IMG/VR virus record: IMGVR_UViG_2534681878_000039
Reading direction: 5' to 3' (one strand)
DNA length: 41,434 bases
DNA from: a virus
Lineage: Duplodnaviria; Heunggongvirae; Uroviricota; Caudoviricetes
Shown: positions 12,001 to 15,000 of the stretch, one piece after another
How the letters are laid out: every line of letters starts with the position of its first letter
Position numbering within the stretch: position 1 is the stretch's first letter
Position numbers: made by a program

Positions 12001-15000
12001 GCCGATTTTTTACCGGCATCCCCTTTTTTGTGGTGCGTGAACTGCGCCAGCTTATAAGCCGCATCCAGCGCCAGCCTGGGGTCGGTATTAATGTTCTCCA
12101 CCAGAAGACGCCCCATCGCTTTCACCGGATCGGGAAGACCGTCCTCCATATATTCAATACCAGGAGACATCACCGCGGACGGTGGCATCTCCGGATTGTT
12201 TTCGTCCGGCTGTGGTATTGCAGCCGCCTCACGGCGACGGGGTTTATCCTCCTGCTCTGATTTTTTCTGCCGGTAAACAGGAACCTCATCCACCTCCACC
12301 GTCTCGCATTGTTTACGGGCTATAAACGCAAGCACCTCCGGATCTTTTGCCAGCTGCGAGCCTTTAACCCTGGCGGTCTTCGCCGAATAACCAGCGGCAA
12401 TGGCTGACGCTGTTTTGTTTTTCCCGGACATGAGCGCCAGCGCAAATTTTCGTTTTTGCGTTGTCAGCACAGCCTCCTCCCGGGTCCATAACGCACTCAG
12501 CCGGGTATGGTTCAGCCCATTTTTCCCGGCGTCTCATGCCGCAAATGTTAACTGCTGCCTGGTTAACATTTGCTGAAAAAGCCAGTTAACATTTTTTCCG
12601 CACAACAAACTGAATAATAAAGATAAAAACCGAAAAAATGCCCGGGCAGCCAGTTAACATGTTAACTGCCCTGAAACAGGAATTTTTTCTCTGCGTGAGA
12701 GGGGGGGCGGTGTCCGGAGCGATCGTTTTTTTCGCCGGATGATCCCCCCCCCCCGGGGCGGGTCACAGTCCGATGATATCGTCTGCCCTGCCATGACCTC
12801 CGGACACCTCCGGCAGCGTCGGGTCCGGCATACCACCCGCCGCTTCACGAGCAGACTTTTGTCGATGGCATTCGGTACAGAGCGTCCAGAGATTCGTCTC
12901 CTCATTACCACCACCGAACTGAAGTGCAATTCGGTGATCGAGTTCACTGTCACAGAGGTCAACCACACGACCACAGAGACAGCACTGCCCGGCATCCCTG
13001 AGCCAGATATGACGCTTGAGGGAAACACGTGCACTGCCACTGACACGACGCTGTTCACCCTTCAGAATATTCACCCGCCGGGTGTTCAGAGTTTTGATTC
13101 TGCCCGGTAACGTACGAAGCACAGCCATGTAAAATCCTCGCCATATAGCTTGTCACCAGAGGAAAGAAAATGTCATCGAAAAACCGGCCCCGCAGAACAA
13201 CAACCCGCAACATCCGATTTCCAAACCAGATGATTGAACAAATTAACATCGCTCTTGACCAGAAAGGTTCAGAAAATTTTTCTGCGTGGGTCATTGAATC
13301 TTGCCGCCGGGAGCTGGCAGCAGACATAAAATATGCCCGTCAGTTGACTATAAAAAAGAATGATACACAGTATGCTCTGCGATGGCTGTTCATATAACTA
13401 TTTCTTTATATTGCTGAATTTATAAAAACTCACAGACATTAGCTGTATTAATTCCGAATTGAAATAATCAGCCATATAGAATAAAAATAAAGCATAACAA
13501 TAATAATCTTCTACCCAATCAGTACATTACTGCTGTGACTCCAACACGGCAGTTTTTTTATTGAACAGATTCCAGTTTCTTCCACCATCGCACCGGACGG
13601 GCGACCATGAGGGGAGAACGCCGCGCTCCGTTTACGCGGTAAACCCCGGTGTGTATCGTTTTTGATTATCCCCGCACACTCGCGCAGAAGGAATTCCCCG
13701 TCGGGCTACGGTCATGGTTAATGCGGAAATACAGCGACGATACAGCGCATGATGTGTCAGGCTTGAATACCTTTATCCGTTAAAAGGGATATCAGTTAAG
13801 TTATCCCGTGTAGGGTATAAGCCATTATCAAGCCCACCAGTAGATGGGCTTTGTAATGGCTACTTCGCTTTTGCTTCCGCTCGCTTACGCCGGCGCTCTT
13901 CTTTCCTCTCGGCTTTTGCCATGTCCATGAATGCCTGCATGATCGAGTTCCGCATCATGTAGCTAACAAAGTGATGATTGACACAGCCGTTGAGGCGCAG
14001 CTGCTCGCCAAACTCATCCACCGAGGCCAATGCTTCCATCATACCCTTCTCGCCTTTCATGAACTCTGAGAAGTCGCGCCCCGCTCTGGAGGCGCATTCA
14101 ATGACACGATCACTCATCCCGGAAGCCCGGGGATCGAAATCTGCAACTGGTTAGCCAGGGAGTTAATTTCAGCGATCAAACCAGGTTTCGTGTAGCGCCA
14201 TGCCGCGAGGCCTTGTCCACAGAAGCTCGCCATGTCTTTTTTCTGATCAAACTCATGACATTTCATGTTGAGCTGCGCACTTAAGCTGTTCCGATGATGA
14301 AGCTCTCCGGTGAAGTAATCATCGAGGACTTTATAGGCTGCATATTTAAATCCGGGGTTTAGCCATGCTGCGTAATCATAAGCAACGAACTTTCCGCCAT
14401 AAGTTCCACCGTGCGCACCGCGTTCCGTAAAAACCACAGATTCGTGGTTTTTCTCCAGCTCAGCCAAGAACTCTTTGGTCTGCTTGTTTCGCAGGTAGTG
14501 GTACGGAGATTCAGATTCACTTTTACCACTGGCTTTCCACATATCAGTGAGGCAGATCATGCCATCTTCACCGATACGGATTGGTTGATTGAAGAGGGTT
14601 AATGATTTCATAGCGTGTACCTACTCTTTGAAATGAACCTTTGCCGCACAGGAAACCAGCCCACCGAGGCTCGCCAGCACTAACTGGTATCCTCAAAGGC
14701 CCATTCCAAAGGGGCAGGTTCGGTGTAAAAAACATGCGTTGCGGTACGCATTTATTGCAAAAAGCCCCGCATCGCGAGGCTCATTAAATGGACTTTGTGA
14801 TTTGCAAAAAAAATTATTTCAGGCATTGCGTCCTGATGTACTCCTGCAGGTAGTTAACCTGCGCGGTTATCTTGTCGATTCCACCTCGGAGACGGTAATA
14901 ATTGAGTTCAGCATCTGCTGTAAGTCCTGGGCTTTCTCCATCGCCCATGCTGCTGGCTCCGGTCGTTGACTTTGCACAGGTGGCGGAGACTTGCAGGCGC

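Follow-up and report, generated by a model that had tools for sequence, protein, structure and literature searches.

A candidate structured-RNA family at the boundary between the lysis and packaging genes of lambdoid phages, lambda included

The 41,434-nucleotide virus record IMGVR_UViG_2534681878_000039 (the whole of this stretch is hereafter called the window) is a lambdoid Shiga toxin (Stx)-converting prophage of the Stx2c phage 2851/1717 type, with its late operon on the minus strand. Within that operon, a 461-bp gap between an 85-aa open reading frame (ORF) and the convergent gene ylcI carries no annotation from RefSeq/PGAP or in the record of phage 2851. Comparison of the gap with its relatives points to a 184-nt element on the minus strand that appears to belong to an uncatalogued family of structured RNAs, distributed among the lambdoid phages of Escherichia, Shigella and Salmonella and including lambda. 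In late-operon order, the locus contains the following:

15960-15745, minus strand: holin
between holin and Rz, minus strand: lysozyme
14814..15263, minus strand: Rz spanin gene, the invariant upstream neighbour of the element
between Rz and the 85-aa ORF, minus strand: KilA-N gene
13860-14117, minus strand: 85-aa ORF, the upstream border of the gap
13820..13861, minus strand: accessory hairpin H0 (inverted repeat I2), directly 3′ of the stop codon of the 85-aa ORF
13566..13749, minus strand: core structured element, 184 nt, matched at full length (205.3 bits) by covariance model R1
13529..13561, plus strand: intrinsic terminator of ylcI, located by a terminator scan, outside the element and abutting its 3′ end
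13170-13397, plus strand: ylcI (DUF3950), convergent with the late operon, the other border of the gap
beyond ylcI, minus strand: HNH endonuclease, terS and terL

The gap is 100% identical to sequences in E. coli O157:H7 chromosomes and in phages 2851 and Stx2a_WGPS6. The original prediction, made from the sequence alone, had described positions 13580-13860 as a GC-rich, structure-prone non-coding segment, and several of its particulars hold: the GC content is 0.54-0.60 at 13560-13760 as against 0.25-0.31 at 13400-13560, a plus-strand terminator (stem 13529-13553, followed by a T-run) precedes the segment, and the hairpin near 13832-13850 is present (arms 13820-13836 and 13845-13861, 88% complementary). 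The assertion that no ORF exceeds about 12 codons was mistaken, in that mechanical ORFs of 25-44 codons occur on both strands of the gap; none of them behaves as coding. Nor is the segment structure-prone in a thermodynamic sense, since the minimum free energy of the sense strand is -61.5 kcal/mol versus -62.2 ± 4.4 kcal/mol in dinucleotide shuffles (z = 0.15), and the other strand has z = 0.45. Because a single sequence by itself shows no structure, the case rests on comparison with relatives, which corrects the segment to a conserved core at 13566-13749 on the minus strand, with the accessory upstream hairpin extending to 13861.

Extent, distribution and place in the operon

Across 104 unique copies aligned from IMG/VR and from annotated phages, both ends of the element are sharp: conservation starts at UGCGC... 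and stops directly after ...CCGGAC, with unrelated flanks on both sides. The 5′ end lies at window position 13749 and the 3′ end at 13566, such that sense position n corresponds to 13750 - n, and this is the single match in the whole window (13566-13749, minus strand) to R1, the covariance model built in this analysis. A BLAST search with the GC-rich core matched 398 phage records at 75-100% identity, including BP-4795, the VT1-/VT2-Sakai and 933W-like phages, lambda-like isolates, and the Salmonella phages ES18 and SPN3UB. The copy in lambda itself occupies 46868-47037 of NC_001416, between bor and lambdap78 (R1 score 114.6 bits), and that of the K-12 prophage DLP12 occupies 579009-579179 of NC_000913.3, between borD and ybcV (121.5 bits).

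The element is present in 4141 of 5426 complete E. coli genomes (about 76%), at 10,686 places in all (median 2, maximum 11), and 11 of 12 sampled genome matches had no annotation beneath them. A strict 19-base pattern, applied to GTDB species representatives, returned few real matches, these being in Escherichia; a looser pattern applied to IMG/VR returned mostly chance matches, which were filtered with the covariance model.

Some copies occur in other settings. Plasmids hold 692 of the 10,686 E. coli matches, and two that were sampled (H161 and H162, from plasmids some 120-140 kb in size) are confined to its 5′ part (query positions 6-100 and 6-54); the plasmid matches may represent phage-plasmids or fragments. 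One IMG/VR contig (L026) has two full copies (5057-5239 and 6007-6189), about 950 bp apart on the same strand and with different flanks.

The two halves of the element are found in mixed combinations. The window joins CAUGA to the A-type and BP-4795 joins AGAGA to the A-type, and lambda and VT2phi_272 have a common 5′ half and different 3′ halves. Such combinations show that crossovers do occur inside the element and that it serves, at least incidentally, as a crossover joint between lambdoid modules.

For synteny, we oriented 161 element-bearing loci on the element. Homologues of the three lysis genes lay upstream and on the same strand wherever they were counted: Rz at all 144 loci in which it was detected, R at 124 of 124, and S at 100 of 100. 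The terminase and HNH genes always lay downstream on the same strand, and bor (42 of 42) and ylcI (82 of 82) always lay on the opposite strand, convergent with the element. In BP-4795, Sakai Sp10 and the 933W-like phages, the element begins only 10 nt after the Rz stop codon. What surrounds this position is far from constant: the upstream flanks are of at least seven unrelated types among the homologues, the downstream packaging modules are of at least four unrelated kinds (HK97-like HNH plus TerS/TerL, lambda Nu1/A-type, 933W-type, and that of ES18), and the next sense gene may follow the element after about 100 nt or only after more than 1.5 kb. A scan of 13566-13860 found no promoter-like or terminator-like site on the minus strand, and there is no U-run after the 3′ helix of the element. 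Given the varied upstream flanks and the lack of a promoter or terminator on this strand, the simplest inference is that the element forms an internal stretch of the Q-dependent late transcript from pR′.

The fold and its strand

The fold consists of a 5′ hairpin domain, a second hairpin with a variable tip, and a 3′ pseudoknot, all on the minus strand:

13652..13744: 5′ hairpin domain, comprising P1, P2, P3 and P3a
13737-13744 with 13652-13659: P1, UGUAUCGU/ACGAUACA
between P1 and P2: conserved asymmetric internal loop, CGCYG / AUCAAAA
13721-13731 with 13667-13677: P2, UAUUUCCGCAU/GUGCGGGGAUA
between P2 and P3: junction UUAAC...
13706-13710 with 13683-13687: P3, CGUAG/CUGCG
13703-13705 with 13696-13698: P3a, CCC/GGG, which caps P3
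13644-13647 with 13611-13614: P4, GGGG/CCCC, enclosing P4a
13635-13639 with 13621-13625: P4a, a variable hairpin, CCGCG/CGCGG
13570..13605: H-type pseudoknot, comprising S1, S2 and L1-L3
13601-13605 with 13587-13591: S1, 5 bp, GUCGC with GCGAU
13593-13598 with 13570-13575: S2 (= P5), 6 bp, GUCCGG with CUGGAA
pseudoknot loops: L1, 2 nt; L2, 1 nt; L3, 11 nt at 13576-13586, GGUGGAAGAAA, A-rich and conserved

Folding across relatives, the check that had been proposed at the outset, yields both a predicted fold and covariation. On a plain MAFFT alignment of 32 representatives, RNAalifold independently predicted P1, P2, P3, P3a, P4 and P5, to which our own model added P4a and the pseudoknot. In that alignment, 95.2% of cells are paired as against 35-62% when the partners are slid, and 13 pairs show changes on both sides as against 4.7 ± 1.5 in shuffles, a value reached in none of 500. 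The model-fitted alignment, which contains 54 sequences including the lambda type, gives 95.5% of cells paired, 16 pairs with changes on both sides (6.3 ± 1.6 in shuffles; 0 of 500 reach this value), and 46 further pair types (32.6 in shuffles; 0 of 500). Over all tests of the fold, the slid-partner controls were 33-65% paired, and shuffles gave 4.7-6.7 pairs with changes on both sides. Compensatory pairs thus exceed the controls, as expected of a conserved structured RNA generally, and beside the covarying helices the unpaired junction and loop nucleotides are invariant. We consider it very likely that the fold is real.

Because all-against-all covariation was swamped by haplotype linkage, it was replaced by scans at the level of helices, and an unbiased scan for covarying helices placed S2, P2 and S1 on top. 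P2 is 98% paired with 3-4 compensatory pairs, lambda swapping one C-G for G-C; P3 is 97-98% paired and alternates between U-G and C-G; and P4 varies on one side only, from G-C to G-U. In P4a, all five pairs have changes on both sides in the model-fitted alignment (CCGCG/CGCGG, CUGUG/CGCAG, CAGCU/GGCUG). The pseudoknot arises from what had appeared to be a 17-nt loop of P5, the 5′ half of which pairs with the preceding linker. Its stem S1 is 96.1% paired, with both-side changes in three of five pairs (variants GUCGC/GCGAU, CUCGC/GCGGG, GCCGC/GCGGU, CUCGC/GUGGG and UGCCAG/CUGGCA), and S2 is 93.2% paired, with both-side changes in five of six. Natural deletions drop whole sub-domains and keep the rest: one variant (L064) has a loop in place of P3a and retains P3, and another (L086) lacks the linker.

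Two other pairings were rejected. The long-range complementary segments first noticed in the window do exist (inverted repeats I3 and I15), but a tertiary helix of CCAUGA with UCAUGG is only 66-73% paired in relatives, as against about 95% for the conserved fold, and lacks consistent covariation. Pairing of GUCGC in the internal loop with GCGAU is 88.7% paired, also without covariation.

Canonical pairs make up 95.5% on the late-mRNA sense and 87.7% on the antisense, and G-U cells (9.6%) outnumber A-C cells (1.9%) five-fold. This excess of G-U, together with the higher pairing on the sense strand, argues that the RNA is the late-mRNA strand and not the ylcI strand, an assignment we regard as likely. 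The proposal of a structured RNA or processing element is accordingly supported by the comparative evidence in its general form; its details differ, in that the element lies on the minus strand, has another fold, and belongs to a lambdoid-wide family that includes lambda.

Upstream of the core by about 70 nt, hairpin H0 is present in 45 of the 161 loci, including ES18. Its stem covaries (GCCCAU/GUGGGC, GCCACU/AGUGGC, GACCAU/GUGGUC), and its T-G wobbles fall on the late-sense strand. A further inverted repeat lies at 13773-13820. In this phage type, the structured region may extend to about 296 nt.

Function within the late transcript

The explanation we favour, with confidence that is evenly balanced, is that the element acts in cis as a structured part of the late transcript made under Q control, probably an intercistronic module for processing or stability. 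It would be transcribed as an internal untranslated stretch of the Q-antiterminated late RNA, after S-R-Rz and before the packaging genes, and would fold into P1, the internal loop, P2, P3/P3a, P4/P4a and the 3′ H-type pseudoknot. Acting in cis on the polycistronic late mRNA, it would determine what becomes of the lysis segment upstream and the morphogenesis segment downstream, uncoupling the two by processing or stability, with the terminal pseudoknot as a plausible exonuclease barrier. A processing or stability role is favoured because the P1-loop-P2 layout resembles RNase III signals, because the position is like that of sib and of stabiliser hairpins between cistrons, and because of the potential barrier formed by the pseudoknot; as the specific function of the element, it is nonetheless put forward only tentatively. 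The invariance of the unpaired nucleotides suggests a specific partner, so the element probably also offers a host or phage factor a place to dock.

Several considerations weigh against this explanation. Transcription of the element, and any processing of it, are deduced from its position, and the survey of Hfq-bound RNAs in lambda by sequencing of ligated interacting RNAs (RIL-seq; 10.1101/2024.10.31.621285) flagged none at the element and so lends the cis model no positive support. Unpaired nucleotides are more strongly conserved than a simple nuclease barrier would require, no stability above that of shuffled sequence was seen on either strand, and the S1 stem of lambda is, by eye, imperfect. 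Moreover, with a mean column identity of 82% the family is narrow, and it is mosaic, such that the covariation rests on few lineages; related sequences can exceed shuffle controls, although the pair-count measures used are the robust ones.

If the element were instead an active RNA device, it might direct processive antitermination (as do HK022 put and EAR-like elements), respond to a ligand or protein as a riboregulator, or split the late transcript as a self-cleaving ribozyme. Invariant junction and loop nucleotides, combined with covarying helices and a pseudoknot, are the usual mark of riboswitches, ribozymes and RNAs that bind RNA polymerase; the element lies within an operon of more than 20 kb, as EAR does; and Perreault and colleagues reportedly described, in 2011, hammerhead ribozymes in the polycistronic transcripts of prophages. 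However, Rfam 15 gave eight matches over the whole window at gathering thresholds, none of them in 13400-13860, and even at E ≤ 10 only chance snoRNA matches in 13300-14000 and in the lambda copy. Q already provides processive antitermination, and neither a terminator nor a ribosome-binding site occurs at a fixed distance downstream, the next sense gene being so variably placed. We therefore think such a device unlikely. An active RNA machine belonging to a new class, whether a self-cleaving ribozyme or a riboregulator that responds to a factor or ligand or is directed at RNA polymerase, that separates the lysis from the morphogenesis block physically or functionally seems slightly less likely still; if true, it would be an unnoticed regulatory layer in phage lambda itself. 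The invariant unpaired nucleotides may leave room for such active roles, be it an RNA directed at RNA polymerase or the ribosome, a riboregulator or a ribozyme, and for a processed trans-acting RNA.

This last idea, in which the element would be the precursor of a trans-acting small RNA (sRNA) that is cut from the late transcript in lytic growth and, like PreS and StxS, regulates host or phage mRNAs or sponges host sRNAs, is as doubtful as that of a device. Prophage late regions are rich in such RNAs, and the window has matches to STnc100 (StxS-like), isrK and C4; Hfq-bound EcOnc RNAs lie nearby in Sakai; the element is discrete and sharp-ended; and its conserved single-stranded A-rich and CA-rich stretches are potential seeds or an Hfq site. 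An autonomous sRNA, as at first envisaged, finds no conserved flanking promoter or terminator. The lambda RIL-seq study reported only LPR1/PreS, LPR2 and 6S (10.1101/2024.10.31.621285), and the lack of an Hfq-bound RNA at the lambda element argues against an sRNA. Of the RNAs seen by crosslinking and analysis of cDNA (CRAC) with Hfq in O157 Sakai, the supplement to Tree et al. 2014 (PMC4104026) gives EcOnc10, EcOnc11 and EcOnc12 as very abundant peaks, which at first seemed to overlap the element. The coordinates in that study are shifted by about 137-146 nt relative to NC_002695.2, an offset derived from AgvB, and after correction these peaks fall on the ylcI terminator, on the opposite strand and without overlap, EcOnc11 mapping to the Sakai Sp10 site homologous to window 13529..13561 (plus strand). 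No EcOnc CRAC peak overlaps the Sp10 element, in uninduced cells whose late operon is silent.

The element also differs from RNAs already described. No description of it turned up in the literature searched, including work on prophage sRNAs and the lambda RIL-seq study. It differs from PasA, PasB and PasC in probes and coordinates, and their probes are absent from the window; nor is it PasD. AgvB, AsxR and Esr41, all Rfam families according to the Pas preprint, had no match in the window in the Rfam scan, and PreS, LPR2 and 6S are located elsewhere in lambda. The suggestion of a retron-like msr-msd RNA was dropped, there being no reverse transcriptase among the neighbours in the window, lambda, the 933W-like phages or ES18.

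A role at the level of DNA (part of a cos or pac site, a conserved homology patch that promotes exchange between the lysis module and the head module, or a structure of single-stranded DNA that serves replication or packaging) is improbable. In linear phage records, 90-1860 bp separate the element from the right end, and the recombinant halves place crossovers within it. Recognition by a terminase is difficult to reconcile with at least four unrelated terminases and a variable distance from the ends, and a cos site, considered because of a faint likeness to the lambda cohesive end, was set aside on the same grounds. A pure homology patch would not keep pairing. In addition, the compensatory changes, the pseudoknot and the fact that G-U cells are five times as frequent as A-C cells indicate that selection acts on the single-stranded fold of one strand, which also speaks against the double-stranded protein-binding site once considered.

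It is more improbable still that the element has no function and that its conservation reflects shared recent ancestry and gene flow between E. coli prophages, the covariation being lineage linkage. The narrow taxonomic range, the 82% mean identity and the thermodynamic z-score near 0 are in keeping with this, and two major haplotypes do generate many spurious covarying column pairs. Yet 184 nt are kept between flanks that are unrelated on both sides, the pair-count measures, which are rarely false-positive, reach 0 of 500 with slid controls falling to 35-65%, and each of the independent lineages (ES18, lambda, the 933W type and the L106 type) has different compensated helices.

Least credible is a small protein gene, decayed to a pseudogene in the window. 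It is annotated over the element, as orf48 or "Rz-like spanin" (81-86 aa; phrog_6954), in 933W-like phages:

L004 2443-2703, minus strand: orf48 / "Rz-like spanin" ORF
L005 2443-2688, minus strand: orf48 / "Rz-like spanin" ORF

Annotation of this ORF in VT2-Sakai and VT2phi_272, a match to phrog_6954 (E = 1e-53 to 1e-60) and a sense frame that runs open through the element in 21 of 52 variants speak for such a gene. Against it, the frame is closed in the other 31, among them those of the window, lambda, DLP12 and ES18; 1-nt frameshifting indels separate close relatives, and whole sub-domains are deleted among variants; no Pfam domain is found in the ORF; base-pair covariation accounts for the conservation; and variable columns by codon phase number 32/33/29 over all variants and 28/24/21 where the frame is open, position 3 being the least variable. 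Frameshifting indels and the lack of codon periodicity exclude coding, so the overlooked conserved frame that could have undone the RNA interpretation turns out, where one is annotated, to lack a coding signature. The phrog_6954 family is a conceptual translation of element DNA in 933W-like phages, with no sign of coding selection and with a name at odds with the true Rz/Rz1 genes that lie upstream; most likely it is a translated RNA element and a propagated mis-annotation.

Lambda and the Stx phages are among the best-studied viruses, and the prevailing view of their late operon assigns its control essentially to Q antitermination and to the efficiency of translation. The element sits at the boundary of lysis and packaging in lambda, in K-12 DLP12 and in roughly three quarters of complete E. 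coli genomes, yet neither Rfam nor genome annotation includes it. As such, it is a testable candidate for post-transcriptional control of late genes, and hence of lysis timing, burst size and Stx phage release. The practical yield is an annotation correction (phrog_6954 / orf48), a covariance model with coordinates, and a marked recombination joint.

Neighbouring RNAs and comparison with known systems

The window contains several other RNA features. The 3′ end of ylcI and its terminator (13505-13561, plus strand) correspond to EcOnc10/11/12, which suggests an Hfq-binding RNA derived from the 3′ untranslated region (UTR) of ylcI, convergent with the late operon. STnc100, which by the account of the Pas preprint and the title of the StxS paper is the pR′-proximal RNA family including StxS and PasD, is matched at full length (158.5 bits) at 19180-19391 on the minus strand, upstream of the lysis genes as expected. 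Adjacent matches to isrK (74.7 bits) and C4 antisense RNA (66.7 bits) at 25652-25837 (minus strand) suggest an antirepressor control module of the P1/P7 or Gifsy type. There are also an sRNA-Xcc1 family match (79.3 bits; 24624-24707, minus strand), a perfect match to the lambda cIII thermoregulator element (88.5 bits; 34668-34726, plus strand), and three phage tRNA genes at 20799-21042 (minus strand), namely Arg-UCU, Arg-UCG and one with a CAU anticodon, the homologue of which is annotated ileZ (tRNA-Ile) in Sakai. The 290-bp gap between HNH and terS (12470-12763) has an AT-rich dip (GC 0.29 at about 12560-12640) and is where an HK97-like HNH-terminase system would be expected to have its cos site.

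Prophage sRNAs (STnc100/StxS/PasD, AgvB, AsxR, PasA-C, EcOnc10-12, and PreS/LPR2/6S) share with the element their genomes and late regions, and are likewise multi-copy in enterohaemorrhagic E. coli; they differ in sequence and in position, lying downstream of pR′ or, for PreS, at ea10-ral. H-type pseudoknots with an A-rich L3, such as -1 frameshift stimulators, the T4 gene 32 operator and riboswitches, have the same S1/L1/S2/L2/L3 topology. In contrast to them, the element has no slippery heptamer, no conserved ORF entering it, no location in a 5′ UTR or at a ribosome-binding site, and no Rfam riboswitch match; a frameshift stimulator was rejected because the sequence 5′ of S1, ...CUCCCCUCAUG, lacks the heptamer and no conserved ORF enters the pseudoknot.

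HK022 putL/putR and B. subtilis EAR are, like the element, cis-acting structured RNAs inside long operons, put coming from a lambdoid phage and EAR being intergenic and containing a pseudoknot. The put elements are two simple stem-loops near early promoters, unlike the element, and both families would be expected in Rfam, where the element has no match.

The R1.1-type RNase III sites of T7 and the sib retroregulator of lambda are intercistronic signals for processing and stability in phage mRNAs, and like the element they are untranslated structured segments that separate blocks of genes on a long phage transcript. In the T7 sites, a lower stem, an internal loop and an upper stem follow a layout similar to the 8 bp, 5 × 7 loop and 11 bp of the element, a comparison of geometry alone, and sib lies downstream of the genes that it controls, as the element lies downstream of the lysis genes. 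Relative to both, the element is larger, with three more helices and a pseudoknot, conserves its unpaired nucleotides, and has no sequence similarity to either.

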